Source: Candidatus Collierbacteria bacterium (GTDB taxonomy: Bacteria; Patescibacteriota; Microgenomatia; UBA1400; JACPES01). Taken from it: a stretch of DNA of 64,000 bases. The notes under the pieces were generated by a model, which saw nothing but the letters and a program-made list of their open reading frames with translations, had not been told where the DNA came from and did not search any database. This document shows positions 6,767 to 61,416 of the stretch, piece after piece (the stretch's first letter is position 1; each line of letters begins with the position of its first letter). The DNA lies in assembly GCA_016183365.1 (NCBI GenBank), contig JACPES010000003.1:473154-537153 (forward strand), given 5' to 3'. The position numbers and the translations under genes are program-made.

Positions 6767-8341
6767 TTGCCAACTTCGCAAAAAGTAAAGCGCGAAACTC
6801 ATGTTGTATATAATGAGGATATGACTCCGTGGAAGAGGTTTTGTCGGGATTGGAAAGGAAAAAGGGTTTTAATTATGGGACTGGGACTTCAGGGCAGAGG
6901 AATTGGGGATGCAAAGTTGTTTTGCGAGGCTGGTTCACATGTAACTGTGACTGATTTAAAAAGTGAATCTCAACTTCAACTTGCGCTTGAACAATTAAAT
7001 GGTCTGTCGATTAGATTTGTGCTCGGGAAACATGAAGAGGAAGATTTTTGGACACACGACATGGTGCTCCAGAATCCTGACGTGCCGTCCAACTCTCCGT
7101 TTTTAGAAGTAGCCAAAAAAGCCGGAATACCGGTTAAAATGGACTCATCTCTTTTTGCCGTCTACTATCCGCTGCCGATAATCGGGATTACCGGGACGCG
7201 GGGGAAGACGACCACTACGATGATGATTTATGAGGTTTTGAAAAAATTATACAAAGGTAGCGTGTATTTGGGAGGGAATATACCGGATAAGGCGACGCTG
7301 GAGTTATTAAAAGAAATTAAAGAGCCTCAGAAGTATGCTTCCTTTGGCTCGTGGTCTACGTCCACGCACCCAAAGAGCGCAACTTTGGGGTTCGGGCGTA
7401 CCGGCGATTTTTTCCGGAGAAAAAAATCGGGTCCGTCCGAAAAAGGCATTGTGGTGTTGGAGTTATCCAGTTGGGAATTACAGGGTTGGCGCGATGAAAA
7501 AATTTCGCCCAATATTTCGGTGTTTACCAATTTCTATCAGGACCATTTGAATCGTTATGCGTCAATGGACGAGTATTTTCAGGATAAATTGGCGATTCTT
7601 CGATATCAGAAAAAAACTGACTGGGCAATTCTAAACGCCGACAATCCATGGACCAAAAAGGCAGCAACGGAAATAAATTCGCGTATCAAATGGTTTTCTT
7701 CCAAAGATTTGCCACAGGAGGCTTTACTTCATGTTCCGGGTGAACACAATCGCGCAAATGCGGCAGCTGCATTGGCAGTAGTTTCTGTGATTGGCGTGGG
7801 GGGAAAAGAAGGATTAGAAATATTGAAAAGATTTAGAGGTGTACCGTTCCGATTGGAAACGATCGCAACGATTGACGGAGTTGAATATATAAACGACACC
7901 ACTTCGACTACTCCGGCGGCCGGAATCGCGGCTCTGCGGGCGATGACAAAACCGGTGGTATTAATTACCGGTGGCTCGAGCAAAAAATTGGATTTAAAAC
8001 CGTTGGCGGAAGAGATCGTTGAAAGTTATAGGAAACACCGGGTTAAGCGGGTGGTTTTGTTAAGGGGAGAAGGGACGGATGAACTAATTGTTTATCTGAA
8101 GGCTTGTGAAGTTTCGTCCTGCAGAGCTGGATCCCGTTCCGCGGGACAAACTTCATACGGGAAACTGATTAACGGGGTTTATGGCGATTTTAAAGTTGCC
8201 GTAACCAGGGCCAGAGATTTGGCAATTTCAGGAGACGCGGTGTTATTGTCGCCGGGTTGCGCCAGCTTTTCCATGTTTAAAAACGAGTTTGACAGAGGCG
8301 AACAATTTAACCAAATCATCCGTAAATGGCAAAAAAAATAA
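6767..8341 (+). CDS. murD: UDP-N-acetylmuramoylalanine--D-glutamate ligase with a ~37-aa in-frame repeat-element insertion
   Basis: KRVLIMGLGLQGRG N-terminus, P-loop GITGTRGKTTTTMMI, Mur ligase C domain. Real start may be the ATG near 6821. Element A copy at ~7335-7447. Confidence 0.8.
   Translation: MPTSQKVKRETHVVYNEDMTPWKRFCRDWKGKRVLIMGLGLQGRGIGDAKLFCEAGSHVTVTDLKSESQLQLALEQLNGLSIRFVLGKHEEEDFWTHDMVLQNPDVPSNSPFLEVAKKAGIPVKMDSSLFAVYYPLPIIGITGTRGKTTTTMMIYEVLKKLYKGSVYLGGNIPDKATLELLKEIKEPQKYASFGSWSTSTHPKSATLGFGRTGDFFRRKKSGPSEKGIVVLELSSWELQGWRDEKISPNISVFTNFYQDHLNRYASMDEYFQDKLAILRYQKKTDWAILNADNPWTKKAATEINSRIKWFSSKDLPQEALLHVPGEHNRANAAAALAVVSVIGVGGKEGLEILKRFRGVPFRLETIATIDGVEYINDTTSTTPAAGIAALRAMTKPVVLITGGSSKKLDLKPLAEEIVESYRKHRVKRVVLLRGEGTDELIVYLKACEVSSCRAGSRSAGQTSYGKLINGVYGDFKVAVTRARDLAISGDAVLLSPGCASFSMFKNEFDRGEQFNQIIRKWQKK
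7335..7447 (+). repeat. Element A copy 1 (two-hairpin ~110-bp repeat), in frame inside murD
   Basis: GGCTCGTGGTCTACGTCCACGC...GGTTCGGGCGTACCGGCGATTTTTTCCGGAGAAAAAAATCGGGTCCGTCCGAAAA. Translated as FGSWSTSTHPKSATLGFGRTGDFFRRKKSGPSEKG. Confidence 0.8.
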
Positions 8342-14274: not shown

Positions 14275-17200
14275 GAAAATCAGCATTAATGCCGTCACTA
14301 TTCCAGGAAATCCCTCCACATCCTGACTTTATAAAAATAGAGGAGGAATTGTTGGACCATTGGTATCGGGACGGGATTGTTAAAAAATATCTTCATAAAA
14401 ACGATAAATCTCCGACAAAGTTTTCTTTCTTGGACGGGCCGATAACCGCCAATAATCCGATGGGCGTCCATCATGGCCGGGGCCGGTCGTATAAAGATTT
14501 ATGGCAAAAATATCATACCATGAAGGGCGACAGGGGAAGATATCAAAATGGTTTTGATTGTCAGGGGCTATGGGTGGAAGTTGAAGTGGAAAAGGAATTG
14601 GGCTTCAAGAACAAAAAAGAAATATTAACTTACGGAGTGGAGAAATTTGTCCAAAAGTGTCGGGAAAGAGCCTTGAAGTTTGCCGCCGTTCAAACAGAAC
14701 AGAGCAAACGTTTAGGGATGTGGGCTGATTGGGGAAATGATTATTACACCATGTCCGACGAAAACAATTATGCCATCTGGAATTTTCTTAAAGTTTGCCA
14801 TCAGCGGGGATGGATATATAAAGGAAATGATTCGGTGCCGTGGTGTCCACGGTGCGAGACCGCGATTAGTCAACACGAAATGTTGACGGAAGACTATAAG
14901 CAGGTGACGCATAAGGCGATATATTTGGAATTGCCGATAACAAAAAACAAAAAACAAAAAACGAAAAACAAGGAAAATGAATATCTATTGATTTGGACCA
15001 CTACGCCGTGGACGATTCCGGCCAATATTGCGGTGGCGGTGGATGAGAAGCTGGAATATGCGCTGGTAAAAGGCAAAACCGGAGATAAATTTTGGATTGC
15101 CAAAGACGCTGTGGACAGAGTTTTCGGGAGTGAACACCAGGGAATAGTCAAAATCGTTAAGGGAAAAGAATTGGTGGGATTGAAATACCGCGGACCCTTT
15201 GATGATTTGCCGACGGTGAAAAAAGTAGCAGAAGAATTTCCGGATAAATTTCACACCGTTGTTCCGGCTGATCCATTAATTCTGTCGATAACCGTTACCG
15301 ACGGAACAGGATTGGTACATACAGCGGTTTCGGCCGGAAGCGAAGATTTTAAATTGGGTAAGAAGCTTGGTTTGCCGATGGTGCCGGTCATCGCGGATAA
15401 CGCTGATTATTTAGACGGATTAGGATTTTTAACCGGAAAAAATGGCAAGAAGAACCCGGCACTGATTCTGGATTATCTTGCCGAGAGAGATAAGTCAGCC
15501 GGAGAAAACTGGGTTTTTGAAATTCAGGATTATCCACACCGTTATCCGGCGTGCTGGAGGTGTAAAACCGAATTGGTATGGAAAGTGACGGATGAATGGT
15601 ATATAGCGATGGATAAGCCCCAAAAGGAATCTTACTTCGGCTCGTGGTCTACGTCCACGCAGCCGAAGAACGATCCTTCGAGGTTCGGTCGTACCAGCGA
15701 ATTTTTGCAGAGCAAAAATCCGGGTCCGTCCGAAAAATCAAAGACGCTTAGGGAGCAGATGAAAGAAGTGACGAAGCAAATCAGGTGGATACCGGGATTT
15801 GGTTTAGACAGAGAATTGGATTGGTTGAATAATATGCATGATTGGTTGATCTCTAAAAAGAATAGGTTTTGGGGATTGGCTTTGCCGATTTGGGAATGCG
15901 ATAAATGCGGATATTTTGATGTAATCGGGGGAAAAAATGAACTTCGTGAAATGGCTGTGAAAGGATTGGATAAATTTAATGGTCATTCTCCGCATAAACC
16001 ATGGATTGATGAGATAAAAATGAAATGCGATAAATGCGAGTCTATGATGTCACGGATAGAACCGGTGGGAAATCCTTGGTTGGATGCCGGAATAGTTCCG
16101 TTTTCGACACTACCCGAAGATTGGTTTCCGGCGGATTTTATTACGGAGTCTTTTCCCGGCCAGTTTAAAAATTGGTTCTATTCGTTGATAGTTATGTCAA
16201 CTGTTTTGGCCGGAAAAAATCCGTTCAAAACAGTTTTGGGATTTGAATCAGTGGTGGGTGAAGACGGCCGGCCGATGCATAAAAGCTGGGGAAACGCGAT
16301 TAATTTTAACGAAGGGGCCGGCAAAATTGGGGTAGATGTTATGCGCTGGATGTATGCCAAAGTCTCTCCTACTTTTGTTTTACCATTCGGATATAAGACA
16401 GGCGATGAAATCAGGAGAAGATTTTTGCTTATTTTATGGAACTCTTTCAGGTTTTTTGTGACCAATGCCAAGGCGGATGGGTGGAAGCCGCAACGATTTA
16501 CGATTTACGATCCTTCGACAGACTCAGGACAAGTTTTACGGTTTACGAATGTCTTGGATAGATGGATATTGGCACGATTGGATGAAACGATCGAAAAAGT
16601 TACCGATTCATTGGATGACTACCAATCGGCGCCGGCAACAGAGGCCTTGGAAAAATTTACCGAAGATTTTTCAACTTGGTATATCAGAAGATCAAGAGAT
16701 AGGGTAGGGCCAACGGCCGGAGGACAGGATAAAGAAAACTGTTATCAAGCCATGTATTCGGTTTTGACCACTTTGTGCCGGTTGTTGGCCCCGTTTATGC
16801 CGTTTATAACCGACTATATGTATATGAATTTAACCGGAGAAGAATCGGTGCATTTGGCGGAATGGCCGGAGGCAAAAAGCAAAGAGCAAAAAACAAAAAG
16901 CAACCAGGAAATTATTGATCGGATGCGGCAAGTTAGGGAAATAGTGGGGTTAGGTCACGCCCAAAGGAAACTGGCGGGAATTCCTTTGCGCCAACCATTG
17001 TCGTCTATAACCGTTTCCGGTCCTGCTATCAATCCGCCTTTTGAGCAGGAGTTTATCAGTTTGATGGCTGATGAATTAAATGTCGAAAAAGTGATTTTTG
17101 AAACCGGAAGTTCACAGGAGTTAGAAGTTAAGCTAGACACTCAATTAACTTCGGAACTCAAGGTCAAAGGAAGGGCCCGGGAGATTATCCGGACGATCCA

Positions 17201-26011: not shown

Positions 26012-26902
26012 ATGTTAATTAATAATATTTCAATTAGCGTGGTTGTTACGGTAAAAAATGATGAAGCTGGGGTAAAAAGGCTGCTTGAAGATTTGGATAA
26101 GCAAACGGTAAAGCCGGATGAGGTTATTATTGTTAGGTCAGAGGATTACGGTAATTGTACACGTGGTAGGGGCAGAAATATCGGGATCAGGATGGCGAGA
26201 AATGAATTTATCGCGGTGACTGACGCGGGGTGCAGGCCGAGGAGAGATTGGGTGGAGAGAATAACTGCTGGACTGTATAAAGGCCAGGCCTTCGAGTACA
26301 AAGGCCAGGCCTTATTTGTAGTGGCGGGATGGTATCGAGCGGTGGCAGAAACGCCTTGGCAAAAGGTTTTTTTGCCGTATTTAGTGCCGACAATCAAGAA
26401 GGATAAGAAGGAAAAGAGAGGGAAAGGTAAAACATTCTTACCGGCCAGCCGGTCGATTGCTTTTACCAAAAAAGCCTGGGAATTGGTCGGAGGCTATCCG
26501 GAAGAGCCGGTTTCCGGCGGAGAAGATTTGAAATTTGCCGATAAACTCTGCAATCATACCGGGATTAATATAATTTATTCGCCAAAAGCTGTAGTTGATT
26601 GGCCGGTACCGTCGACTTTAACGGAATTTATTAAAGATATGGTTAAACATACCAGGGGGAATTTTGAGGCCGGATATTGGCCGCATATCGTTCGAAATTT
26701 AAATGTGGTAGCAAGGTGGATGATAATGGTGATTTGGCCGTGGTTGATACCGGTGTATTTGATATGGGGGATTACCCGTCTTCATCAAAAAACGGCGAAG
26801 CGATGGCGGATTAGGGACATTGCGATTAGGGTGGTGGCCGACGCGGCGGTATTTTACGGAACGATAATCGGTATAATTGATGGGTGGGTTATAAGAAAAT
26901 AG
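26012..26902 (+). CDS. GT2-family glycosyltransferase with C-terminal TM segments
   Basis: ISVVVTVKNDEAG...VTDAGCRP (GT-A fold DxD region). Hosts one in-frame palindromic insert (KGQAFEYKGQAL). Confidence 0.6.
   Translation: MLINNISISVVVTVKNDEAGVKRLLEDLDKQTVKPDEVIIVRSEDYGNCTRGRGRNIGIRMARNEFIAVTDAGCRPRRDWVERITAGLYKGQAFEYKGQALFVVAGWYRAVAETPWQKVFLPYLVPTIKKDKKEKRGKGKTFLPASRSIAFTKKAWELVGGYPEEPVSGGEDLKFADKLCNHTGINIIYSPKAVVDWPVPSTLTEFIKDMVKHTRGNFEAGYWPHIVRNLNVVARWMIMVIWPWLIPVYLIWGITRLHQKTAKRWRIRDIAIRVVADAAVFYGTIIGIIDGWVIRK
26280..26312 (+). repeat. Element D (CGAGTACA-loop subtype), in frame in the GT2 gene
   Basis: AAGGCCAGGCCTT-CGAGTAC-AAAGGCCAGGCCTT, encoding KGQAFEYKGQAL. Confidence 0.8.
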
Positions 26903-28092: not shown

Positions 28093-29957
28093 GGGTTCTA
28101 TTTTTGTCTCCGGTGCATCCGCTGTTAACTCCGGGAAATCCTTTGCCAAAGTGGCAGATGCAAATGAGTTGGGTTAGAGGTTTAGAGAAGGCAGGGGCGG
28201 AGATAAAAGTGGTCAAGTATACGCCAGGGGACGGGGTTAGGCTTAATTGGGCTGATCGGGTTTGGTGGAATTTGAGGGTGATTAGCGAGATTCAAAAAGC
28301 TAGATTGCCATGGTTCGCTAAGGGCGGGCCTAGCAATGACAGGGGAAAATTTAACTTGATTGTTTATTCGCTGGGGGCAGATGTGCTGTTGCCGCAGACG
28401 GTAAAGTTAATTAAATGGTTGACGGGAACGCCATTGGTGATTTTGTCAGGAGTATCACCTATTCTCAACGGTAATCCGCGGGAAAAGGCTACCGCGAAAT
28501 TGGTGGATTTGGCGGCGGTGAATGACGAAAATCATGCCGAAGAATGGATAAAATTAGGGGCTAAAAAAGCAGTGATTCTGCCGATTTCAGCGATGGATCC
28601 GGAATTGCATTGGAATAGAGGCAAGGAGGATCAGGGGGATAAGAAAGATATTGACGTTTTATTTGTTGGGACTTTGACGGAAGAGCGGAAAAGATTTCTA
28701 AACAATTTACGAAAATTGTTGCCGAAATCGATTAATTTATTGATTAAAGAGTTTGGGTGGGAAGAGGAATACGCTGGATTGATGAGCCGGGCCAAAATTG
28801 CGCTTAATCCGATAAGGTCGGAAATGGCGGGAGGGGCTAATTTAAGAATGTTTGAAATTCCGGCGTTTGGGGCTTTGGAATTGGCGAGTAACGGGAAAAA
28901 GGAATGGTTAATGCCGGGAAAGGAAATGCTGGTGTATAAGGATGCGGAAGAGGCGGTGGGGTTGATTGCTAAATATTTAAAAGATGATAAAAGACGGTTA
29001 GAGATGATAAATAGAGGGATGAGAAGAGTAAAAAGAGAACATACATTTAAGGAGAGAGCAGAAAAGTTGATGGAGTTTATCAAGATGGACTTTAATAGGG
29101 CCTTGCCTTCTGGTACAAAGGCCAGGCTTTTAGTTGATGTGTCAGTTTGTATTGTTAATTATAAAGCAGATAAGGAATTAGAGCGGTGTTTGGCGTCGAT
29201 TTCTCAATTTACCAAAGGAATAAATTTTGAAGTAATCGTGATTGATAATTCGTCAGACAATAGGTGGTATTCAGGTGGGAACAATCTGGCATTAGCGCGG
29301 GCAAAAGGAAGATATGTTTTATTTTTAAATCCGGATTGTTATTTAACTGAAAACGCTTTGGCAAAAATGGTTGGGTGGATGGATAAACATCCCGAGGTTG
29401 GAACTGGTGAGCCGAGGCAGGTTTATGACGATGGTGAAATCGCGCCGACAGGTTCACTTTTGCCGGTATGGTGGGTGGATTTAGTGGAATTAACCGAGTT
29501 AAGCCGGTGGTTCGGGAGCGTGGGGAGAAAGGGCAGGTTGGGTAGACTTGGTAAAATCAGTGAGGTTAGGCAAGAGAATTTAGACAGGCGGAAGAATTGG
29601 CAGACGGAGGTAGTCTCCGGGGCGGCAATGATTGTCAGAAAGAGGATTTTGGACGAGATCGGCGGTTTTGATGAGAAACTTAAACTTTATTACACTGATG
29701 TTGATTTGTGCAGGCGGATTTTGGTGGCGGATTATCAGGTTTGGCATGTGGGGGAGTTTAAACTTGGCCATTCCACCGGAAGAAGCACAGATAAAATAAA
29801 ATGGGATGATCTGTATGATATTTATGCCGGGGATGGGGGAAATTACTATTCTAAATGGGGGAAAGAGTTTGGTGGAAAAATATTATTTTGTGGGATGAAG
29901 GTGAATAAAGCAATATTAAGAATAGGGCATGCGTTGATGACAAAGAAAGTGTTATGA
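28089..29957 (+). CDS. bifunctional glycosyltransferase (CgeB-like GT N-domain plus GT2 C-domain)
   Basis: N-half resembles CgeB/Glyco_trans_1_2 (DVLFVGTL...RKRFL). C-half is GT-A (CIVNYKADKELERCLASI...VIVIDNSSDN...LFLNPDCYL). Confidence 0.55.
   Translation: MRVLFLSPVHPLLTPGNPLPKWQMQMSWVRGLEKAGAEIKVVKYTPGDGVRLNWADRVWWNLRVISEIQKARLPWFAKGGPSNDRGKFNLIVYSLGADVLLPQTVKLIKWLTGTPLVILSGVSPILNGNPREKATAKLVDLAAVNDENHAEEWIKLGAKKAVILPISAMDPELHWNRGKEDQGDKKDIDVLFVGTLTEERKRFLNNLRKLLPKSINLLIKEFGWEEEYAGLMSRAKIALNPIRSEMAGGANLRMFEIPAFGALELASNGKKEWLMPGKEMLVYKDAEEAVGLIAKYLKDDKRRLEMINRGMRRVKREHTFKERAEKLMEFIKMDFNRALPSGTKARLLVDVSVCIVNYKADKELERCLASISQFTKGINFEVIVIDNSSDNRWYSGGNNLALARAKGRYVLFLNPDCYLTENALAKMVGWMDKHPEVGTGEPRQVYDDGEIAPTGSLLPVWWVDLVELTELSRWFGSVGRKGRLGRLGKISEVRQENLDRRKNWQTEVVSGAAMIVRKRILDEIGGFDEKLKLYYTDVDLCRRILVADYQVWHVGEFKLGHSTGRSTDKIKWDDLYDIYAGDGGNYYSKWGKEFGGKILFCGMKVNKAILRIGHALMTKKVL
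29097..29130 (+). repeat. Element D (degenerate CTGGTACA-loop subtype) in the bifunctional GT gene
   Basis: GGGCCTTGCCTT-CTGGTAC-AAAGGCCAGGCTTT. Confidence 0.55.
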
Positions 29958-30712
29958 AATTGACTGCAATAGTTTTGATTGGGCAAAATGACAAGATGAA
30001 AGCTAAACAGGCAATAGATTCTTTGTCGTTTGCGGATGAAATAATTGTAGTTAAGGAAAAATTTCCGATTAATGATTTTGGCGAAGTCAGGAATAGGGCT
30101 TTGGATAGGGCTAAAGGAGAATGGGTGTTGTTTGTGGATAGTGATGAAAAAGTGACGCAACAACTCGCTAGAGAAATCAAGCGAGTTATCAAATTTTCAA
30201 GCCAAGGTTATTTTTTACAGCGACAAGATAAATTTCTTGGTAGGTGGTTGAAGCATGGGGAGACGGCCAGTGTCAAATTGTTGAGATTAGCTAAAAAAAA
30301 TGCCGGCCGATGGGTTAGGCCGGTGCATGAAGTATGGAAGGTTAAGGGCGAAACAGGGGAATTGAAGAATCCCCTATTGCATTATTCTCATGAAGCGGTC
30401 GAAGGGATGGTTGAGAAATTAGACAGATATAGCGGGATGGAGGCGGGGTATAAAAATAGACAAATGGTTAGATGGTTAGAATGGTTAAAATGGCTGAACT
30501 GTATTCGATTAATATCGTTTCCTGTAGGCAAATTCGTCCTTAACTATTTTTTTCGTCTGGGGTTTTTGGACGGGATGGAGGGATTTATCCACGCCGGAAT
30601 GATGAGCGGGCATTCGTTTTTGGTACGAGCGAAGCTCTTAAAGCGGTACGAATCTACCTGCCAGATTTCGCATGGACGAAGTCCAGATGGGCGGGCGAAT
30701 TCATCCGAATGA
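29954..30712 (+). CDS. GT2-family glycosyltransferase (LPS-core-type)
   Basis: LTAIVLIGQNDK...VLFVDSDEKV (DxD). C-terminal 18 aa read through a CGAATG-family repeat. Confidence 0.6.
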   Translation: MKLTAIVLIGQNDKMKAKQAIDSLSFADEIIVVKEKFPINDFGEVRNRALDRAKGEWVLFVDSDEKVTQQLAREIKRVIKFSSQGYFLQRQDKFLGRWLKHGETASVKLLRLAKKNAGRWVRPVHEVWKVKGETGELKNPLLHYSHEAVEGMVEKLDRYSGMEAGYKNRQMVRWLEWLKWLNCIRLISFPVGKFVLNYFFRLGFLDGMEGFIHAGMMSGHSFLVRAKLLKRYESTCQISHGRSPDGRANSSE

Positions 30713-30725
30713 TACGAATAAATAA
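30630..30725 (-). repeat. CGAATG-family element (C type) in inverted orientation, spanning the GT2 3' end and the ligase 5' end
   Basis: Reverse complement ATTCGTATCATTCGGATGAATTCGCCCGCCCATCTGGACTTCGTCCATGCGAAATCTG matches 12570-12630. Confidence 0.7.
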
Positions 30726-31914
30726 ATTGATGGGATTACTATTTTTAGTCGGGTGGGTGGCGGGGCAAATTACCAGATGGCATGGGAGTTTTCCGGTGAC
30801 GATTCTTGATATGGCGGTGGGGGGAATAGTGATTACGGGAGGGATAAAAGGAGTAAAGAGGATTAAAGGGGTAGGTTTGATATTAATAGCGTCGTGGATT
30901 TTAAGTTTGAGATTATTTTCTTTGGAGCAATCTGTTTCGGGAGGGCTTTATCTTTTAAGGTTTTTGGGGTATTTGTGGATCATTGCCAATGCTGATAAAT
31001 TGTTGGCTCCGGTTAAGAAACTGATTGTACCGGCTTTTTGGATTTTCGTGATTTTTGCTTGGATTCAATACTTGTTTTTGCCGGATACCAGATTTTTGCT
31101 TCAATACGGATGGGATGAGCATTATTATCGGATGATCGGAACGGTGCTGGATCCGAATTATTTGGGGGTGATGTTGGGGATGGTGGGGATATATTTAATA
31201 TACAAATATACAAATAGACAAATAGACAAATGGGGGAAAATATTATTGGCGTTTACTTTTGGCGGATTGGCGCTGACTTATTCTAGAGCGAGTTGGATGG
31301 CGGTTTTAGTATCTGGTATCTGGTATATGGTATATGGGTTGAGCCCCAGCACTACGCTTACTTGCTCCCGTGGTTTACATCCACGCGTCGCAAGAGCGCG
31401 AGTGCGGGGTTCGGGCGTACCAACTGATTTTTCTGGAGAAAAATCAGGGTTCGTCCGAAGGGGATTAGGGATATTGGGCATACTGGGTGTAGTTGCAATA
31501 CTCGGAATATGGTTCATGGCGCCAAAACCCGGTGGGGAAGGAATTAATTTATGGAGGACCAGTTCGATTGAGCAGAGAATTGAAAGTTGGCGGGAGGGAA
31601 TAAATGTTTGGCGGGAACATCCGTGGGTTGGAGTGGGATTTAATAACTATGCAGCGGCTAGAGATAAAGTACCAGAAGAAAGAAATCATGCTGAGAACGC
31701 GCCGAGCAGTAGCTGGATTTTGCTATTGGCGACGACGGGGATTATAGGAATGGGTTGGTTAGCGATGGTTGGATGGTTGGCAGTCAGAAATTCAAATAGA
31801 TTGCTGGTGGGGATTTTGGTGATGATCGGAATTCACTCAATTTTGAATAATACCATTTTTTATCCACCAATTTTGGGTTTATTAGCTATGATTAAGGTTG
31901 CCAACGCAGAGTAA
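30709..31914 (+). CDS. O-antigen ligase/polymerase-like (Wzy_C domain) membrane protein with in-frame Element A insertion
   Basis: Multi-TM protein with Wzy_C hallmark LALTYSRASWMAVLV and a periplasmic loop. Confidence 0.55.
   Translation: MIRINKLMGLLFLVGWVAGQITRWHGSFPVTILDMAVGGIVITGGIKGVKRIKGVGLILIASWILSLRLFSLEQSVSGGLYLLRFLGYLWIIANADKLLAPVKKLIVPAFWIFVIFAWIQYLFLPDTRFLLQYGWDEHYYRMIGTVLDPNYLGVMLGMVGIYLIYKYTNRQIDKWGKILLAFTFGGLALTYSRASWMAVLVSGIWYMVYGLSPSTTLTCSRGLHPRVARARVRGSGVPTDFSGEKSGFVRRGLGILGILGVVAILGIWFMAPKPGGEGINLWRTSSIEQRIESWREGINVWREHPWVGVGFNNYAAARDKVPEERNHAENAPSSSWILLLATTGIIGMGWLAMVGWLAVRNSNRLLVGILVMIGIHSILNNTIFYPPILGLLAMIKVANAE
31345..31462 (+). repeat. Element A copy 3 (subfamily 2), in frame inside the O-antigen-ligase-like gene
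   Basis: AGCACTACGCTTAC...CGCGAGTGCGGGGTTCGGGCGTACCAACTGATTTTTCTGGAGAAAAATCAGGGTTCGTCCGAAG. Translated as ...RVRGSGVPTDFSGEKSGFVRRG. Confidence 0.75.
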
Positions 31915-35571: not shown

Positions 35572-37374
35572 ATGGTAGCGGTTTCTAACAATCAATCTAT
35601 CGCCAAAATGCTGTTTGAGGTGGCGGCGGTTTTGGAAGTGACCGGAGGCGACCGATTCAGAATTCGGGCTTATCGGGAAGCGGCCAACTCGATCGAGACT
35701 TATCCGGTCGAAGTCCGTGATTTGTGGGAGCACAGGAATTTAGGAGATGTGGCCGGAGTAGGAAAAGCTATGGCCGGTTATTTGGATGAATTTTTTAGGA
35801 CCGGAAAGGTAAAACATTTTGATTCTATTAAAAAGAAAGTCCCGGCCGGAATGTTTCCTTTGCTTAATGTGAGTGAGATCGGGCCTAAGACGGCTTTTGT
35901 CCTTTCTAAAGAGCTGGGGTTAGTTAAGGCCCAAATTGCGATTGATAAGCTTAAAAGAGCTGCTACGGACGGTGAGATAGCCAAGATTGAAGGCTTCGGG
36001 GAAGAATCTCAAGCAAAGATTTTATCCGCTATCAAGGAAGCCGAGTCGAGAGAAAATAAGATACTTTTACCTGTGGCCCAAGAGTTGGCAGATAAAGTTA
36101 TTGGCTATCTCCAAAAACAGCCCGGGATTATTAAAGTCGAGGCTTTGGGTAGTTTGAGAAGAAAATCTGCTTTAGTCGGAGATATAGATATAGGCGTTGC
36201 CGTTTCAAACCCGAAAGCAATCGCGGAAAGTTTTATCAAATTTCCTGAATTTATCAAGATATTGGCAACCGGAGACAAAGTTTGCCGGGCGATTCACCGC
36301 ACCGGACGGCAAGTTGACTTAAAAATTGAGCCGTTGGAAAGTTTTGGTTCTATGTTGCAACATTTTACGGGGAGTAAGGAACATAATATTGCTTTGAGGG
36401 AGTACGCGCTGAAAAAAGGTTACTCGTTGTCGGAGCATGGGGTTAGAGAACAGAAAGCAGAGAACAGAGAACAGGAATCAGGAAACAAGAAACAGGGAAT
36501 AAGAAGGTTCGGAACGGAAGAAGAATTTTATAAAGCCCTCGGCATGCCGTGGATTCCGCCGGAATTGCGGGAAAATCGCGGAGAGATTGAAGTCGGCTTA
36601 TCAGGCAAACTTCCAAAGTTGCTGGAATTATTAGATATCAAAGGCGATTTTCATACCCATTCTGATTTTGATATTGAAACCAGCCATGATACCGGAGCTT
36701 CAGGTTTAATTGATCTGGTAAATACTGCTAAAAGATTGGGATACGAATACATCGCTGTATCTGATCACAATCCGTCTACTTCAAATCACAATCATAATCA
36801 AATAATAGACCTTATAAAGCGGAGAAATGATTATATTGATAAATTTATTTCATCTCATGAAATGGATGTGAAAATAAAAATATTTAAATCCCTCGAAATA
36901 GATATATCCGGCGATGGATCAATCGCTATTCCAGATTCGGCATTGGAGCTTTTGGATTTTGGCATAATTTCAATTCACAGTCAGTTTGTTGCCGACGAGA
37001 GCAAGCAAACGGCCAGAATTTTAAGAGCTCTTTCACATCCTAAAGTCAAAATACTGGGCCATCCGACTGGCAGGCAGCTCTTAAAACGGAACGGAATCAA
37101 TTGCGATTGGGATAAAATATTTGATTTTTGCTCCCAAAAAAATATTTGGTTGGAAGCTAACGGAAATCCGTTTAGAATGGATTTGCCGGATCAATTAATC
37201 CAGAAGGCAAAGAATTTTGGGGTTAAATTTACTTTGGGTACAGACAGCCATAATTTCAGTCAGATGGAGTATATGCCGTCCGGAGTTTCGTTGGCAAGAA
37301 GGGGATGGCTTGAGAAGAAAGACGTGATAAACTGTTTGGAATATAATGAAGTAAAAGAAAAGTTAAAAGGCTGA
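35572..37374 (+). CDS. polX: DNA polymerase X family with C-terminal PHP phosphoesterase domain
   Basis: HhH motifs, nucleotidyltransferase motif GSLRRKSALVGDIDIGV, PHP motif FHTHSDFD. A 20-aa Q/E/K/N-rich microsatellite insert sits between the domains. Confidence 0.8.
   Translation: MVAVSNNQSIAKMLFEVAAVLEVTGGDRFRIRAYREAANSIETYPVEVRDLWEHRNLGDVAGVGKAMAGYLDEFFRTGKVKHFDSIKKKVPAGMFPLLNVSEIGPKTAFVLSKELGLVKAQIAIDKLKRAATDGEIAKIEGFGEESQAKILSAIKEAESRENKILLPVAQELADKVIGYLQKQPGIIKVEALGSLRRKSALVGDIDIGVAVSNPKAIAESFIKFPEFIKILATGDKVCRAIHRTGRQVDLKIEPLESFGSMLQHFTGSKEHNIALREYALKKGYSLSEHGVREQKAENREQESGNKKQGIRRFGTEEEFYKALGMPWIPPELRENRGEIEVGLSGKLPKLLELLDIKGDFHTHSDFDIETSHDTGASGLIDLVNTAKRLGYEYIAVSDHNPSTSNHNHNQIIDLIKRRNDYIDKFISSHEMDVKIKIFKSLEIDISGDGSIAIPDSALELLDFGIISIHSQFVADESKQTARILRALSHPKVKILGHPTGRQLLKRNGINCDWDKIFDFCSQKNIWLEANGNPFRMDLPDQLIQKAKNFGVKFTLGTDSHNFSQMEYMPSGVSLARRGWLEKKDVINCLEYNEVKEKLKG
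36440..36500 (+). repeat. in-frame GAACAGA/GAAACAAGAAACAG purine-rich repeat tract in polX
   Basis: GAACAGAAAGCAGAGAACAGAGAACAGGAATCAGGAAACAAGAAACAGGG. Confidence 0.65.
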
Positions 37375-37430: not shown

Positions 37431-38018
37431 ATGAATTTAACAGTAATTTTAATAGCCTTAGCAGTAATAGCTTTAGGCTACATAGTTTCCACATATAATT
37501 CGTTTCAGACGATTAAAACCAGAATTAAAGCCAGCATTCAGGAGATTGGCAATCAGTTGAAAAGACAGACGGATTTAATTCCAAATCTGGAAACCAGTGT
37601 TAAGGGATACCTGAAACACGAGAAGTCGATTTTTGACAAACTGACTGATGCCCGGAAATCCGTGTCGGAAGCGGTGAAAACCGGTAATTTAAATAACGCC
37701 CAAGACGCGGCCGGAAAGCTGACCCAATTGATTCCGGCATTGCAGGTTTTGGTTGAGAGTAACCCGGAACTTAAGGCGAATACGACTGTCGCCAGTTTGA
37801 TGGATGAACTAAGGGATACTTCCGACAAAGTGATGTATTCTAGACGGACATTAATTGATTTAACGGCTGATTACAACCAAATGCTGGTGACTTTCCCCTC
37901 CAATATGGTTGGTAATTTATTCGGGATGAAGCAAGAAAAGGGCTTGGAGATGCCGGAAAGCGGAGAATTTTTGAAGGTGTCGGCAGATGAGACAAAGAGC
38001 CCGAAAGTGGAACTGTAA
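37431..38018 (+). CDS. lemA: LemA family protein
   Basis: N-terminal TM helix plus YNSFQTIKTRIKASIQEIGNQLKRQTDLIPNL, the LemA signature. Confidence 0.8.
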   Translation: MNLTVILIALAVIALGYIVSTYNSFQTIKTRIKASIQEIGNQLKRQTDLIPNLETSVKGYLKHEKSIFDKLTDARKSVSEAVKTGNLNNAQDAAGKLTQLIPALQVLVESNPELKANTTVASLMDELRDTSDKVMYSRRTLIDLTADYNQMLVTFPSNMVGNLFGMKQEKGLEMPESGEFLKVSADETKSPKVEL

Positions 38019-38020
38019 TA

Positions 38021-38107
38021 GCGATCCGAATGATTCTAATAATCATCCGAATGTTCCGAATAGAAGAAATTCGGATAATTCGAATGTCATTCGTGGATTT
38101 GGATCGC
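38021..38107 (+). repeat. CGAATG-family element (B type) in the lemA-htpX spacer
   Basis: GCGATCCGAATGATTCTAATAATCATCCGAATGTTCCGAATAGAAGAAATTCGGATAATTCGAATGTCATTCGTGGATTTGGATCGC, co-linear with the 3233-3317 copy. Confidence 0.8.
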
Positions 38108-39106: not shown

Positions 39107-40744
39107 ATGGGTTCTTCGATAACAAAACAACAAGTTCAGCACGTGGCGAAACTGGCCAATCTTCAACTTTCTGAAGAAGAATTAGAGCTTTACACCAAGC
39201 AGATTAAGGATATCGTAGGTTATGTCGAGCAACTTGATAAGGTTAAAGTCGACGGAGTGAAACCGACTTATCAGACGTTAGATGGTATGGTTAATGTTTG
39301 GCGGGAAGATGAAGTCGGGATGAGTTTGAGCCAGAATGAAGCGTTGTCGCAAGCTAAAAGAATTGTGGATGGGTATTTTGTAGCCGCTCCAGCACTACGT
39401 TTGCCACTCCCCCTGATCAAATCGGGACGTCGTGGTGTCGCGAGTGCGGAATTCGGGCGTACCAGCGAATTTTTTCAGAGCAAGAATTCGGGTCTGTCCG
39501 AAAATAAATATAACGCGATTTTGACGGAGGTGGATGAAAAGGGAGCGGTTGGGCATAAGGATTTGTTTTTGACAAAGGGGGTCAGAAGCAGCGCAGGATC
39601 AAATGTCTTGCGGGAATATTTGCCGCAATATTCTTCAACCGTAGTTGAACTTTTGGAGAAAGCCGGATTTAAGACAAAATATAAGTTGAATTGCGACGCT
39701 TGGGCCCATGGCAGTAGCGGAGAAAATTCTGATTTTGGGTCGACAAAAAATCCGTGGAATGAGGAATTTACTCCCGGCGGGTCGTCCAGCGGGTCGGCCG
39801 CGGCGGTAGCCGCCGGACTGGTGGATGTCGCCACCGGCACCGATACCGGCGGGTCGATTCGGCTGCCGGCCAGTTTTTGCAACTTGGTGGGATTAAAGTC
39901 GACTTACGGGGCATTGAGCCGGTATGGAATTGTGGCGATGGCGTCGAGTTTGGATTCACCGGGAGTAATTGGGAAATCAGTTAGAGAGGTGAAGAAAGTT
40001 TTCAAAGTGATGGCGGGGAAGGATGAAAGGGATGCGACCAGTCTGGATAGTGTAAAAAGGCCCGGCCTTGTTTTAACAAGGCCGGGCATTATCAGAATTG
40101 GAATTCCAAAGGAATATTTTGATAAAGGGATTGATTTGGAAGTTAGACAAGCGGTCATGACAGCGGTTAAAATTTTGGAGAAGAACGGGTTTAAGATTCA
40201 GGAAATTTCTTTACCGAATTCAAAATACGGAATCGCGGTTTATTACTTGGTCCAAACCACCGAAGTTTCCAGCAATTTAGGCCGATACGATGGTATTCGG
40301 TATGGTTTCGGGCGAGAAAGTTTCGGGGCCGAGGCGAAGCGGCGAATTATGCTGGGGACATTTGCCTCGTCGGCCGGATATTCCGCCAAGTTTTTTGAGA
40401 AAGCCGCTAAGGTGAGAACCTTGATAATTCAGGATTTTGAAAAGGCGTTTAATTCGTCGGCTGACGGAGTGGACGTGATTTTAGGGCCGGTGTCGTCGAC
40501 ACCGCCGTTTAAATTGGGAGAAAAAGCCAATGATCCTTTAACCATGTATTTGTCGGATATTTTGACGGTGTCGGTGAATTTGGCCGGATTGCCGGCGTTG
40601 GCGTTGCCTTGCGGTTTTTCGAAACATAACTTACCGATCGGAATGCAGTTGATAGGGCCACGGTGGTCGGAAAATTTATTGTTTGACGTTGGTGAAGTTT
40701 ATCAAAGTTTGACCAAGTGGCACACCAAAAAGCCACAGGTTTAA
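39107..40744 (+). CDS. gatCA: Glu/Asp-tRNA amidotransferase subunits C and A, translationally fused through an Element A repeat copy
   Basis: Residues 1-95 are GatC (QVQHVAKLANLQLSEEELELYTKQ...). Residues ~130-545 are GatA with the amidase signature GGSSSGSAAAVAAGLVDVATGTDTGGSIRLPA. The frame is continuous across the repeat at ~39392-39505. Confidence 0.75.
   Translation: MGSSITKQQVQHVAKLANLQLSEEELELYTKQIKDIVGYVEQLDKVKVDGVKPTYQTLDGMVNVWREDEVGMSLSQNEALSQAKRIVDGYFVAAPALRLPLPLIKSGRRGVASAEFGRTSEFFQSKNSGLSENKYNAILTEVDEKGAVGHKDLFLTKGVRSSAGSNVLREYLPQYSSTVVELLEKAGFKTKYKLNCDAWAHGSSGENSDFGSTKNPWNEEFTPGGSSSGSAAAVAAGLVDVATGTDTGGSIRLPASFCNLVGLKSTYGALSRYGIVAMASSLDSPGVIGKSVREVKKVFKVMAGKDERDATSLDSVKRPGLVLTRPGIIRIGIPKEYFDKGIDLEVRQAVMTAVKILEKNGFKIQEISLPNSKYGIAVYYLVQTTEVSSNLGRYDGIRYGFGRESFGAEAKRRIMLGTFASSAGYSAKFFEKAAKVRTLIIQDFEKAFNSSADGVDVILGPVSSTPPFKLGEKANDPLTMYLSDILTVSVNLAGLPALALPCGFSKHNLPIGMQLIGPRWSENLLFDVGEVYQSLTKWHTKKPQV
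39392..39505 (+). repeat. Element A copy 4 (subfamily 2), bridging gatC and gatA in frame
   Basis: AGCACTACGTTTGCC...CGCGAGTGCGGAATTCGGGCGTACCAGCGAATTTTTTCAGAGCAAGAATTCGGGTCTGTCCGAAAA. Translated as ...AEFGRTSEFFQSKNSGLSENK. Confidence 0.8.
40057..40090 (+). repeat. Element D copy, in frame in the gatA portion
   Basis: AAGGCCCGGCCTTGTT-TT-AACAAGGCCGGGCATT. Confidence 0.75.
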
Positions 40745-40786: not shown

Positions 40787-42172
40787 ATGACCGGAAGTTT
40801 TAACTATATCCCCATCATTGGCCTAGAAATACACGTCGAGTTGAAGTCGAATTCCAAGATGTTTTGCGGATGCAGAAATGATCCGTTCGGAGCTTCAAAA
40901 CCTAATATTTATACTTGTCCTGTTTGCTTGGGATTGCCGGGAGCTCTGCCGGTACCGAATAAGAAAGCGATTGAATCAACCGTAAAATTAGGCTTAGGTT
41001 TGGGTTGTGAAATAAATAGAGAATCGCGGTTTGACCGGAAACATTATTTTTATCCCGATTTGCCGAAAGGATATCAGATTAGCCAATACGAGAGGCCATT
41101 CGCGACGAATGGAAGGTTACAGGTTACAGGTTACAGGTTAGAAAAGAAAACAGTAAGAATACGGAGGGTGCATTTGGAGGAGGATACGGGGAAATTGTTA
41201 CATCGAAAAATAAACGGCGAGGAAGTTTCATTGATTGACTTTAATCGATCGGGAGTTCCACTTGTCGAAATTGTGACTGAACCGGATATTAGGTCAGCTG
41301 AAGAAGCCAAAGAAACTGCCAAAAAAATTCACCGGATTGTCAGATCTTTGGAAGTTTCCGATGCGGATATGGAGAAGGGGTCAATGAGACTAGAGGCGAA
41401 TATTAGTATGTTTAAAGGCCTGGCCTTCGAGTACAAAGGCCAGGCCTTACCGAACTATAAGGTGGAGATCAAGAATATAAATTCATTCCGGTTTTTGGAG
41501 AGAGCGATTGAAGAAGAGATTGAGAGGCAGAGGAAAATTTTGGAATCAGGAAAAGAAGTTAAGCAGGAGACCAGAGGCTGGGATACTCAATCTATGACTT
41601 CTAAATCCCAAAGGACTAAAGAAGAAGCCGCGGATTACCGGTATTTTCCGGAACCGGATATCCCGCCGATTTCTTTGTCAGATGATTGGATATCAAAAAT
41701 CAAAACTCAAATCTCGAAACTTCCGGAAGAAATATATGAAGAATTGATTAGAGCCGGAGTGGCGGAACAAGCCGCAAGGATAATTTCGGCGAATAAAGAT
41801 TTGGCAGCAAAGGTACAAGAAAGTACAATAAAGTACAATAAAGTACAAAAAGATGAGGAATTAGAGGCAAAAGAAATCGGAAATTTTGGGAACTGGGTAC
41901 TGCATCATCAGCTGGAAGTCAGGGAAAAGCCGGCAGAGGAACTGATCTATTTATTTAAGCAAGGGAAAGAGGGGATAGTTTCCGATTCGGAGCAGCTTGA
42001 GGGATGGGTTTTGGGAGTAATCGAAGATAATCCTCGAGCGGTGGCTGATTTTAAGGCCGGAAAACAGCAGGCGATTGGATTTTTGATTGGACAAGTCCAA
42101 CGTTTGGCAGGGGGTAAGGCGGATGTCAAAAAAGTTAAAGAAATTTTGCTAGAAAAAATTACGAATAAATAA
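40787..42172 (+). CDS. gatB: Glu/Asp-tRNA amidotransferase subunit B
   Basis: IIGLEIHVELKSNSKMFCGC N-terminus, GatB/YqeY C-terminal domain. Contains three in-frame repeat inserts. Confidence 0.85.
   Translation: MTGSFNYIPIIGLEIHVELKSNSKMFCGCRNDPFGASKPNIYTCPVCLGLPGALPVPNKKAIESTVKLGLGLGCEINRESRFDRKHYFYPDLPKGYQISQYERPFATNGRLQVTGYRLEKKTVRIRRVHLEEDTGKLLHRKINGEEVSLIDFNRSGVPLVEIVTEPDIRSAEEAKETAKKIHRIVRSLEVSDADMEKGSMRLEANISMFKGLAFEYKGQALPNYKVEIKNINSFRFLERAIEEEIERQRKILESGKEVKQETRGWDTQSMTSKSQRTKEEAADYRYFPEPDIPPISLSDDWISKIKTQISKLPEEIYEELIRAGVAEQAARIISANKDLAAKVQESTIKYNKVQKDEELEAKEIGNFGNWVLHHQLEVREKPAEELIYLFKQGKEGIVSDSEQLEGWVLGVIEDNPRAVADFKAGKQQAIGFLIGQVQRLAGGKADVKKVKEILLEKITNK
41111..41140 (+). repeat. 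in-frame (AGGTTAC)4 microsatellite in gatB
   Basis: GGTTACAGGTTACAGGTTACAGGTTA, encoding LQVTGYRL. Confidence 0.8.
41414..41447 (+). repeat. Element D (CGAGTACA-loop subtype), in frame in gatB
   Basis: AAGGCCTGGCCTT-CGAGTAC-AAAGGCCAGGCCTT, encoding KGLAFEYKGQAL. Nearly identical to the copy at 26280. Confidence 0.85.
41812..41852 (+). repeat. in-frame (AAAGTACAAT)n microsatellite in gatB
   Basis: AAGGTACAAGAAAGTACAATAAAGTACAATAAAGTACAAAAAG. Confidence 0.8.
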
Positions 42173-60936: not shown

Positions 60937-61350
60937 ATGAATCAATTACTTCATCTATCTTTAGCTACCCCTTCACGTCAAGTTTTGGATATTGAAGATG
61001 TTGAGATAGTCAACGCTCCGGCGGAAATGGGAGATGTTGGCATCCTGCCGAATCATGCTCCGTTTTTATCAAAACTGCGGGACGGAGTTATAAATTACAA
61101 GGTCGGCGGGAATAATTTTTACGTCGGGGTTAACGGGGCATTTATGGATGTGGCGGAGAATCAAGTCACCATAATTTCCGAGGCCGCGATTTTACCTGAA
61201 GACGCCGATTTAGCCAGAGCCCAGGAAGCCAAAGATAAAGCCAAAGCGGAACTGGAAAAAAAGCTGGAAGGAACGGATTTCCAAATGGTAGAAGCGGAAT
61301 TGAGACGAGCATTATTGGAATTGAAATTGCTGGAACATATTAAAAAATGA
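60937..61350 (+). CDS. atpC: F0F1 ATP synthase subunit epsilon
   Basis: N-terminal beta-sandwich plus C-terminal helical hairpin, LPNHAP motif. Confidence 0.8.
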   Translation: MNQLLHLSLATPSRQVLDIEDVEIVNAPAEMGDVGILPNHAPFLSKLRDGVINYKVGGNNFYVGVNGAFMDVAENQVTIISEAAILPEDADLARAQEAKDKAKAELEKKLEGTDFQMVEAELRRALLELKLLEHIKK

Positions 61351-61416
61351 ACAAGAATCAAGAAACAAGAAACAATGAAATTCATTGTTCTTTGCTTCCT
61401 GTTTCCTGTTTCTTAT
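61351..61416 (+). terminator. long imperfect hairpin after atpC, built from AACAAGAAACAA repeats
   Basis: AACAAGAATCAAGAAACAAGAAACAATGAA / TTCATTGTTCTTTGCTTCCTGTTTCCTGTTTCTT inverted repeat. Confidence 0.4.

Follow-up and report, generated by a model that had tools for sequence, protein, structure and literature searches.

The fused gatCA gene

The window (the whole 64-kb stretch of DNA analysed) came from Candidatus Collierbacteria, within a group of tiny groundwater bacteria (CPR/Patescibacteria). On its + strand, a single ORF of 545 aa (39107..40744) encoded GatC, a 41-aa peptide of a repeat named Element A, and GatA, in this order, and its translation was an exact sequence match to MBI2310011.1 (Candidatus Collierbacteria). 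Both domains were recovered by Pfam in this entry of the ORF list: GatC (PF02686) at aa 21-92, over profile positions 1-65 of 66, with 69.5 bits (gathering cut-off 23), and Amidase (PF01425) at aa 151-525, over positions 55-444 of 445, with 383.6 bits. The single GatC-linker-GatA reading frame described in the first-pass annotation was thus borne out.

The GatC module (aa 1-92; 39107..39382, + strand) was delimited by Pfam and by alignment to solved GatC chains, which covered ORF aa 4-93; residues 3-91 of the 100 of S. aureus GatC (2DF4_C) aligned to it with an E value of 7.5e-14. Unfused GatC C-termini from three related contigs (L012, L013 and L025) served as reference for the normal end of the protein. 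The last four or so residues, normally xxVF or xxVI, came here from Element A as APAL, which put AL in place of a near-invariant VF; this swap could have an effect on the beta-hairpin through which GatC contacts GatB.

The GatA part (aa ~134-545; 39506..40744, + strand) began with KYNAILTEV and was a short form of the protein, as displayed by Pfam, solved chains, TIGR00132 and Foldseek. Solved GatA chains aligned from ORF aa ~147 on, beginning at their own residue 63-76, so that about 60-75 N-terminal residues were missing, and this shortened N-terminus was common to fused and unfused relatives. Because of the missing segment, the NCBIfam family TIGR00132 (gatA) reached 448.1 bits, under its cut-off of 481.1, with a match to profile positions 64-464 of 466; it was still the top-scoring family for this part, with a lead of more than 220 bits. 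The first reading of a complete GatC therefore held, while its "full" GatA did not. In a sequence search of solved chains, the best matches to this part were all GatA (E 1e-112 to 1e-101), and the top Foldseek matches to its predicted model were also GatA chains (TM 0.76-0.82, target-normalised). The catalytic triad of the amidase signature is Lys/cis-Ser/Ser; K151, S226 and S250 did not vary in either of two homologue alignments, one of 31 and one of 76 sequences.

An independent gatA start was sought within the fused ORF. ATG was absent where unfused relatives begin gatA, and the only in-frame GTG or TTG codons lacked a properly spaced Shine-Dalgarno sequence. The in-frame GTG in GAC GGA GGT GGA was rejected as a start, GGAG being directly adjacent. 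We infer from these sequence features that the ORF is translated as one GatC-GatA chain. Besides the NCBI record, gatCA DNA of 100% identity, with the same 545-aa protein, was found in three independent assemblies (SRR12113424, SRR12113384 and SRR12113431). Since these agreed base for base, the fused ORF was not a sequencing error, and the faulty base within the element that had been considered at first pass was not found.

Directly 3' of gatCA lay gatB (461 aa; 40787..42172, + strand; Pfam GatB_N and GatB_Yqey), and the order gatCA-gatB-dnaE was kept in contigs L001, L026, L012, L013 and L025. The tRNA-dependent amidotransferase would consist here of two polypeptides, GatC-GatA and GatB, instead of three. 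Its catalysis is predicted to be that of GatCAB, in which GatA would free ammonia from glutamine and GatB would transamidate Glu-tRNAGln and/or Asp-tRNAAsn.

Element A in the linker and in other genes

The linker held a full-length copy of Element A (39381..39507, + strand), recognised by covariance model, homology break and fold, and its in-frame peptide AAPALRLPLPLIKSGRRGVASAEFGRTSEFFQSKNSGLSEN (aa ~93-133) formed the entire inter-domain linker between GatC and GatA. A covariance model trained on 13 copies, the linker copy not among them, matched the latter over model positions 1-128 (84.3 bits, E 2.7e-22), which upheld the earlier view of the linker as an in-frame copy of a dispersed repeat. 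Nucleotide homology with the syntenic sister contig L001 stopped exactly at 39384 and 39506, and the copy folded as two hairpins (-46.4 kcal/mol, z -3.1). The element filled exactly the stretch between the end of GatC and the beginning of GatA, and the limits first given for it (39392-39505) were essentially correct. A linker copy short by about 39 nt was considered and rejected, as both the covariance-model match and a copy in gatB of contig L015 showed full length. In contig L002, the linker contained an additional insert nested in Element A.

Element A was a repeat of about 127 nt made of two adjacent hairpins and scattered over Collierbacteria genomes, with four copies of about 127 nt each in the window, all in + strand ORFs. 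Apart from the linker copy, these were found in frame in a Mur-ligase (MurD-like) ORF at 6767-8341 (copy at 7319..7446, + strand, 133.7 bits with the covariance model), in frame in a class I aminoacyl-tRNA synthetase ORF (IleRS-like) at 14271-17345 (15612..15739, + strand, 132.5 bits), and in a Wzy_C (O-antigen ligase-like) ORF at 30709-31914 (31338..31464, + strand, 136.8 bits). An orthologue of the IleRS-like copy was present in contig L014. The wzy copy was read in a frame different from that of other copies, and the L001 orthologue of this gene had no copy. Altogether, the window and related contigs yielded 17 non-identical copies, in host genes as unrelated as murD-like, ileS, wzy, gatCA, gatB, fmt, LCP, murC-like and glycosyltransferase genes. 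Some orthologous sites were empty in sister genomes, and presence varied between close relatives. When the whole window was compared with Rfam at gathering thresholds, six tRNAs were recovered and none of the repeats was matched, and a scan of viral contigs for the Element A pattern gave 0 matches. Matches in a genome collection, from two GC-rich Armatimonadota contigs and one Amycolatopsis contig, were discarded on inspection as unrelated palindromes or chance.

A second family of smaller hairpins was also found in gatCA and gatB. A small palindromic repeat (AAAGGCCnGGCCTT-loop-AAGGCCnGGCxTT; repeat families D1/D5) lay in frame within GatA as KRPGLVLTRPGI (40046..40090, + strand), in a variable loop where the insertion was common to clusters P0002-P0004 only and where the AlphaFold model had pLDDT below 50 (aa 318-321). 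Another small hairpin repeat, seen from repeat and translation, was in frame in a GatB loop as ANIS-MFKGLAFEYKGQA-LPNYK (41404..41448, + strand). The same GatB loop was filled by Element A in contig L015, and Element A and the smaller family used common insertion loops. It is conceivable, if rather doubtful, that Collierbacteria carry at least two stop-poor, structured palindromic repeat families that swap at the same codons (the gatCA tether, the GatB loop and a glycosyltransferase loop) by a site-directed exchange of cassettes within ORFs, for which the fused gatCA would be a landing pad. If true, such repeats would settle in the loops and linkers of essential genes for translation and for the cell wall, much as RPEs (Rickettsia palindromic elements) do in Rickettsia.

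Element A was open to translation to an unusual degree. Stop-free sense frames numbered 24 out of 45, against 7.5 +/- 2.3 in shuffles, and all three sense frames were usually open. In the AlphaFold model, pLDDT was below 50 for aa 98-131 and other parts were confident (pTM 0.87), which is consistent with an element-encoded peptide forming a disordered, exposed tether, though low pLDDT is not a proof of it. The 41 residues would most likely be a passive tether only. It is unlikely that this basic, flexible segment (RRG..., FGRTSEFF...K) was co-opted for a function, for instance to contact tRNA or GatB or to set the length of the tether. Such a role would agree with the basic (K/R-rich) character and similar order of length of the ancestral linkers, with Element A being kept open at the gatCA junction in two lineages, and with the frame shared by most in-ORF copies (..FGRT(S/G)(D/E)FF..K.SG.SE(K)) even though all sense frames are usually open. 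However, several unrelated enzymes and a membrane protein carried the same peptide, a different frame was used in the wzy copy, no structure was given to the peptide by AlphaFold, and relatives manage without it.

The structure of Element A was strongly conserved. It comprised 41 base pairs, with 96% of cells paired and compensatory changes in 20 of the 41, a level of pairing and compensation reached by 0 of 500 shuffles; the covariation score was 0.41, against 0.13 in shuffles and at most 0.10 in slid controls. MFE z-scores of the copies ranged from -2.9 to -6.2, and one conserved G-U pair could form on the sense strand only. Together, the covariation and the conserved G-U pair show structural selection beyond the need of a purely passive insert. 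This conservation could be explained by selection on transposing master copies.

The 20 compensatory pairs, the strand-specific G-U pair and the sense orientation of 9 of the 11 independent in-ORF copies would also be expected if Element A worked as RNA (or as single-stranded DNA), for instance as a pause or stability element of the mRNA. We regard this as improbable, because antisense in-ORF copies and intergenic copies also occur, nothing in Rfam matched at gathering thresholds, the presence or absence of copies at orthologous sites argues against a gene-specific function, and a mobilisation that recognises hairpins would equally require a conserved structure. For the movement of the element, the best guess would be that single strands are transposed or recombined with the help of the hairpins, along the lines put forward for REP/RPE-type repeats. 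Element A would persist where it has come to lie in frame within a loop or linker that tolerates it, and the gatCA tether is, in our preferred reading, such a place.

Origin of the fusion and of its tether

Fused proteins were frequent among relatives. More than 80 of the best 120 homologous protein clusters were 510-556 aa long, with GatC and Amidase domains and 51-80% identity, and the named sources of fused clusters were Collier-, Woese- and Beckwithbacteria. In a neighbour-joining (NJ) tree built on the GatA part of this one protein, and which carries no support values, the Collierbacteria core clade was monophyletic and all of its 11 clusters were fused; Element A formed the linker in just two, the one from the window and P0012 from contig L002, and other linkers were found in the remaining 9 of the 11. 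A separate monophyletic clade contained 60 fused clusters without Element A, its named members being Woese- and Beckwithbacteria. Most of the unfused short-GatA lineages were placed between the two fused clades, and the unfused group of P0019 and P0027 adjoined the fused P0011. With unfused lineages standing among fused clades, fusion or fission took place more than once. A single ancient fusion for all fused proteins was dropped, as these unfused lineages intervene. By the topology of this tree, the genes would evidently have fused at least twice in the group, or have been split repeatedly. The Element A-bearing linkers of the window and of L002 did not pair in the tree, which implies two insertions, an intervening replacement, recombination or a poorly resolved tree.

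In alignments of fused relatives, the end of GatC and the start of GatA were conserved, and the linkers that joined them were variable. Typically, a GatC end of the form GYFVxxxVF was followed by a basic, poorly conserved tether of about 20-25 aa and by the GatA start KYNAILTEV; other core-clade linkers retained the GatC tail xxVFGE, which Element A removed in the window. In contig L001 (83% nucleotide identity, syntenic), gatCA was fused through a different small hairpin repeat, and no Element A was found across its 21.6 kb. In contig L026 (MAG JACRNH01), the fused gatCA had an unrelated linker, and elsewhere in this MAG Element A was present in fmt and in an LCP gene. Unfused relatives had next to no room between the genes: in L025, gatC (ending in GVFGERSI before its stop) shared 17 nt with gatA, which starts at a GTG, and the gap was 1 nt in L013 and 30 nt in L012. 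As truly unfused relatives lacked a spacer to fill and most fused relatives lacked Element A, the element would have replaced an existing protein linker. The first-pass annotation, in which Element A fused two cistrons by occupying the spacer between them, found no support in either observation, and the comparison with sister loci that it had proposed turned against it, because close Collierbacteria relatives were fused with other linkers and the fusion would thus predate Element A.

Most probably, then, the fusion was inherited and its tether was later overwritten by a full-length Element A, whose 41 residues act only as a disordered tether. By parsimony over the single-protein NJ tree, the fusion would have come first and Element A later. 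The inter-domain tether would be under little sequence constraint, and Element A would have replaced a pre-existing hypervariable linker together with the last 4-6 or so residues of GatC. Given the dynamic fusion and fission of these genes, the older fusion might itself have been mediated by an element.

It is quite improbable that gatC and gatA were still separate in the immediate ancestor and were fused when Element A was inserted over the gatC stop and the gatA start. Nearly all other core-clade clusters were fused with non-Element A linkers and a retained GatC tail (the exception being P0012 of L002), the closest long syntenic contig, L001, was fused with no Element A in 21.6 kb, and JACRNH01 had Element A elsewhere and none in its fused gatCA. 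These observations outweigh the exact run of the element from GatC end to GatA start, the overlapping unfused genes of L025 near Collierbacteria (where, by arithmetic, both frames would become one if 3n+2 nt were inserted), the recurrence of fusion and fission in the group, and the presence of Element A at the same junction in the sister contig L002.

An artefact of assembly or sequencing, by which the true genome would have a stop or frameshift in Element A and two genes, is extremely unlikely: homopolymer runs do occur within the element and a 1-nt difference in it does split the ORF of contigs L002 and L003 (TTTTTTCA-AGA vs TTTTTTCAGAGC; gatC 152 aa, gatA 434 aa), but the window sequence was reproduced in three assemblies from different runs, fusion was the rule among relatives, and gene breakage in L002 and L003 was widespread, as is typical of an error-prone assembly. 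In these two contigs gatB, dnaE, CTP synthase and more genes were fragmented, with breakpoints that differed between both, and since many genes were split by frameshifts, the split of gatC and gatA there was probably an assembly error. P0012 (434 aa, Amidase only, 78% identical) was for this reason rejected as an unfused close relative. The preferred reading remains an inherited fusion with a replaced tether.

Comparison with known systems

Canonical GatCAB enzymes (S. aureus 2DF4/2G5H, A. aeolicus 3H0L, P. aeruginosa 4WJ3) have the same GatC, GatA and GatB modules as the window, in the usual gene order, and the modelled fold was close to that of solved GatA (TM ~0.76-0.79, target-normalised). 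They differ in having three separate subunits where the window has a single GatC-GatA chain, and the window GatA was short at its N-terminus, with repeat-derived insertions in the linker, GatA and GatB.

A laboratory-selected gatC-gatA fusion is known from Mycobacterium smegmatis, in which a 1-nt insertion removed the gatC stop; the strain is viable, its GatA is of full length and mistranslation is raised, and no natural fusion was found among the ~500 gatCAB loci surveyed in the same study (PMC7541841). The Collierbacteria fusion differs from this mutant in being natural, kept across many lineages, and built with a tether of 20-40 aa and a short GatA. Over a large block of CPR bacteria, a natural single-chain GatC-GatA is the norm, and these bacteria provide, by their short GatA N-terminus and 20-40-aa tether, a natural comparison for the mutant. 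The fusion thereby bears on the minimal tRNA-dependent amidotransferase and on how faithfully ultra-small cells translate. Our literature search returned no paper on a natural GatC-GatA fusion in CPR, and none on RPE-like elements in CPR/Patescibacteria.

As a small, structured and dispersed repeat of non-coding origin, polymorphic in presence and absence, Element A resembled MITEs, REPs and BIMEs. By inspection, the ends of its consensus were not inverted repeats of one another, as those of a MITE would be, and it differed from REPs in that its copies were mostly intragenic. Between filled and empty sites (wzy and gatCA), which were diverged and rich in indels, no target-site duplication could be identified.

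To our knowledge, palindromes that code for protein in frame have been regarded as a peculiarity of Rickettsia. According to the MITE review PMC10969869, RPEs (Ogata et al. 2000, 2002) are hairpin repeats of ~100-150 bp in several families that occur, in frame, within various unrelated housekeeping ORFs of reduced genomes, with a peptide that is read through and compatible with the fold, and with a variable presence. At the sequence level, Element A was alike in being ~127 nt long, multicopy, hairpin-forming, in frame in unrelated ORFs and variable in presence. Its host is a CPR bacterium (Collierbacteria) and not Rickettsia, it consists of two adjacent hairpins vs the one long palindrome of RPEs, and it was open in all three sense frames and shared loops with a second, smaller hairpin family. 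Element A thus behaves like an RPE in these described features, and we do not file it as a member of that class. The finding would suggest that selfish repeats have a general way of surviving where genes are dense and of remodelling the loops of proteins, and, for annotation, it warns that additional segments of CPR proteins may derive from repeats. As compared with the Rickettsia elements, Element A would represent an RPE-like phenomenon in an unrelated lineage of reduced genomes, marked by strong covariation and by an openness independent of the reading frame.

Organization of the fused gatC-gatA gene and its product

The gatC-gatA gene (39107-40744, + strand) appeared in the ORF list as a single open frame of 545 aa, followed downstream by gatB (40787-42172, Pfam). 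By Pfam, aa 21-92 form a complete GatC domain (profile positions 1-65 of 66) and aa 151-525 an Amidase domain (positions 55-444 of 445). Solved GatC chains matched aa 4-93, and solved GatA chains matched from about aa 147 through the C-terminus. The single GatC-element-GatA frame described by the first-pass annotation was thus confirmed, and a sequencing error inside the element as the cause of the open frame was ruled out by the agreement of three independent assemblies from different sequencing runs (0 mismatches over the 1638 nt of the gene). The AlphaFold model of the fusion had a pTM of 0.87, with GatA chains as top structural matches. We conclude that the amidotransferase is a predicted two-chain enzyme, GatC~GatA plus GatB. 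The protein was identical to NCBI MBI2310011.1, which comes from a MAG of Candidatus Collierbacteria; fused proteins of this type are already present in public databases, labelled GatA or GatC.

The GatA part had been taken as full length, which did not hold: relative to solved GatA chains it began about 60-75 residues further in, lacked the first 54-63 or so profile positions (Pfam Amidase, TIGR00132) and scored 448 bits against TIGR00132, below the cut-off of 481 bits. A similarly short GatA (413-419 aa) was encoded by unfused relatives (contigs L012, L013 and L025), so that the shortening is not a consequence of fusion. K151, S226 and S250, which we take to be the catalytic residues of the amidase-signature family, were invariant columns in homologue alignments.

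Element A in the tether and the distribution of the fusion

Element A, a dispersed repeat of about 127 nt that folds as a pair of adjacent hairpins (MFE z-scores -2.9 to -6.2), was found by repeat finding and alignment in four copies in the window, every one within + strand ORFs. A covariance model trained on 13 other copies, the gatC-gatA copy being purposely excluded, recovered the latter at 39381-39507 over the full model (84.3 bits, E 2.7e-22), and nucleotide homology with the syntenic contig L001 broke off at 39384 and returned at 39506. Together these showed the stretch between the two domains to be a genuine repeat copy, with essentially the coordinates first assigned to it. The encoded peptide (aa 98-131) was modelled by AlphaFold at pLDDT <50 between confident domains, as was the insert of a second, smaller hairpin repeat in GatA (aa 318-321). 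The contribution of Element A is most likely limited to a disordered tether.

The proposal that the element itself fused the two genes was not sustained, since fused relatives carried other tethers and unfused ones had no spacer for it. More than 80 of the best 120 protein clusters were 510-556 aa long and held both domains at 51-80% identity, from sources named as Collier-, Woese- and Beckwithbacteria. In alignments, the GatC end (GYFVxxxVF) and the GatA start ((D)KYNAILTEV..GHKDLF) were conserved in fused proteins, with a short, basic and poorly conserved tether in between; the Element A peptide was found in the window protein only. In L001 (83% nucleotide identity to the window) gatCA was fused through a tether that held a small palindromic repeat, not Element A (AAGGCCTGGCCTT TGACCAC AAAGGCCAGGCCTT, read as KAWPLTTKARPF), and this small repeat was also found in the tethers of P0003, P0005, P0006 and P0009. 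In MAG JACRNH01, fmt harbored Element A and an LCP-family gene held half a copy; its gatCA was fused by an unrelated tether, and Element A was absent from the surrounding 21.6 kb.

A second Element A-bearing gatC/gatA junction, in the same position and with a fuller copy plus a nested extra insert, was found in L002 and L003, near-duplicate contigs of a single assembly (ENA ERZ1286166). Here the ORF was split at the junction by a 1-nt difference beside a T-run. In these contigs gatB, dnaE, CTP synthase, polX-like and other genes were also in 2-5 pieces each, at positions differing between the two. Separate gatC and gatA genes were therefore dismissed and the split read as an assembly error; the assembly looks frameshift-prone and its gene calls, including these two, untrustworthy.

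Genuinely separate genes were encoded in L012 (2671-4260), L013 (2700-4242) and L025 (273-1806), with gatC of 99-102 aa beside the short gatA and a common gene order gatC-gatA-gatB-dnaE. The gap between gatC and gatA was 1 nt in L013 and 30 nt in L012; in L025, gatC ended in ...GVFGERSI* and overlapped by 17 nt a gatA starting GTG-KDPYNAILT, with GGAG upstream. The former intergenic spacer that the element was thought to occupy was hence not of element size in any of the three. The VFGE tail of unfused GatC also opened the fused tethers of several Collierbacteria, and was removed by Element A in the window. In a neighbor-joining tree of the GatA part (a single tree without bootstrap values), the Collierbacteria core formed one clade (11 clusters, 11/11 fused), 60 other fused clusters formed a second, and 16 of the 20 unfused short-GatA clusters were placed between the two, which argues for at least two origins of the fusion or for repeated loss. 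GatC+Amidase fusions also turned up sporadically among further clusters at 50% identity, one of them from a Eubacterium sp. MAG.

Repeat families and their insertion sites

A 22-base pattern taken from the 3' hairpin of Element A, run against public collections of genomes and metagenomes, matched only Collierbacteria-like contigs, save three unrelated GC-rich hits, and no viral contigs. GC-rich palindromes fitting the pattern occurred twice in the Armatimonadota MAG JAHWJO01 (L004 7782-7827 and L007 7-52); their surroundings were unrelated to Element A, and they may be an independent palindromic family whose stem base is similar. Across 15 aligned copies, 96% of cells were paired over 41 predicted pairs and 20 of these pairs showed compensatory double changes, the invariance of the 3' hairpin base being partly ascertainment as it was fixed by the search pattern. 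None of 500 shuffles reached the values observed, and slid controls were far lower. Stop codons were strikingly scarce in Element A: sense frames were open in 24 of 45 cases (7.5 +/- 2.3 in shuffles) and antisense frames in 15 (7.8 +/- 2.4), the copies being related and the trials not independent. Host genes were unrelated: a MurD-like ligase, an IleRS-like synthetase, a Wzy_C membrane protein (read in another frame), gatCA, gatB, fmt, an LCP gene, a MurC-like ligase and a glycosyltransferase. Two copies were antisense within long ORFs and some others intergenic. Sister genomes displayed empty orthologous sites (wzy in L001, murC in the window), and the IleRS-like copy had an orthologous copy in L014. 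That orthologue (L014 ~1315-1410 vs window 16458-16500) also had an extra segment of about 13 aa (HPSSRAEGRQTSR.. within ..SVAISGIATSSAKGG..), another lineage-specific in-frame insertion in an Element A-carrying gene.

The small hairpin repeat (palindromes of about 45-57 nt, ..GTATAAAGGCCnGGCCTT-loop-AAAGGCCnGGCCTTA) was found at 25409-25453, 25522-25566, 25841-25885, 26269-26313, 29086-29130, 40046-40090 and 41404-41448. At least five copies were in frame (twice in ORF 24828-25982, and in ORF 26012-26902, gatA and gatB), encoding motifs such as K(G/A)(Q/R/L)(A/P)F..K(G/A)(Q/R)(A/P). Orthologous copies kept the stem and varied in the loop (gatB of the window, L001 and L002).

At 3 of 5 sites that could be compared, orthologous genes carried Element A in some genomes and the small hairpin repeat in others at the same place, to the codon at two of the three. 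In GatB, the loop flanked by ANIS and LPNYK held the hairpin in the window (41404-41448), L001 and L002, and Element A in L015 (941-1064); in the glycosyltransferase ORF 26012-26902, the loop that follows ITAGL held the hairpin in the window (26269-26313) and Element A in L017 (851-977); the gatCA tether held the hairpin in L001 (~10255-10300) and others, and Element A in the window (39381-39507) and L002. Targeted exchange between the two families could account for this. However, L012, L025 and L026 (MAG JACRNH01) have still different sequences in the GatB loop, and such sites may simply be hypervariable, permissive loops.

Other short repeats were observed. A third family (..GCCCGCCTGGACTTCGTCCATGCGAA..) formed an inverted pair in the window (12588-12621 and 30667-30700) and was nested inside the junction Element A copy of L002 (9860-9905), as repeats within repeats. 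A fourth, GCGATCCGAATGATnCnAATnAnCATCCGAATGTTCCGAATAGA-like with a periodic CGAAT motif, was located at 3227-3276, 12521-12570, 25174-25223 and 38015-38064, with at least one copy (38015-38064) straddling the LemA gene end and the next spacer. A-rich periodic repeats (AACAAAAAACAAAGAACAA...) were found at 9409-9469 (where ORFs 8326-9420 and 9417-10526 meet), 14939-14971, 16871-16903, 36449-36502 and 61343-61375; Lys/Asn/Glu-rich tails and loops of relatives (e.g., the L026 GatB loop, LSEIKEKGKRKKEKGE) may be of the same kind.

Proposed mechanism and known counterparts

The covalent GatC~GatA tether is probably old, and because it is unconstrained, in-frame selfish repeats have accumulated in it. 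The conserved hairpins of Element A are best accounted for by the process that mobilises it, putatively a hairpin-recognising single-strand transposition or recombination, a step we infer from the likeness to REP/RPE-type repeats; no terminal inverted repeats were found in Element A, and the filled and empty sites compared in wzy and gatCA, diverged and rich in indels, gave no identifiable target-site duplication.

Overall, the first-pass observation stood and its interpretation was partly supported, except for the element having fused two genes. The interest shifts to a natural, lineage-wide single-chain GatC-GatA and to the presence, in a CPR bacterium, of in-frame repeats resembling RPE; the literature searched held no paper on natural GatC-GatA fusions of CPR, nor any on repeats of the RPE kind in that group. 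The Collierbacteria fusion resembles a laboratory-selected M. smegmatis GatC-GatA mutant with increased mistranslation, for which the authors found no natural fused counterpart in about 500 loci (PMC7541841). Element A behaves like the Rickettsia palindromic elements (RPE; PMC10969869). As its host is a CPR bacterium, unlike Rickettsia, and the likeness described is one of behaviour, Element A is classified as working like RPE rather than as a member of that family.
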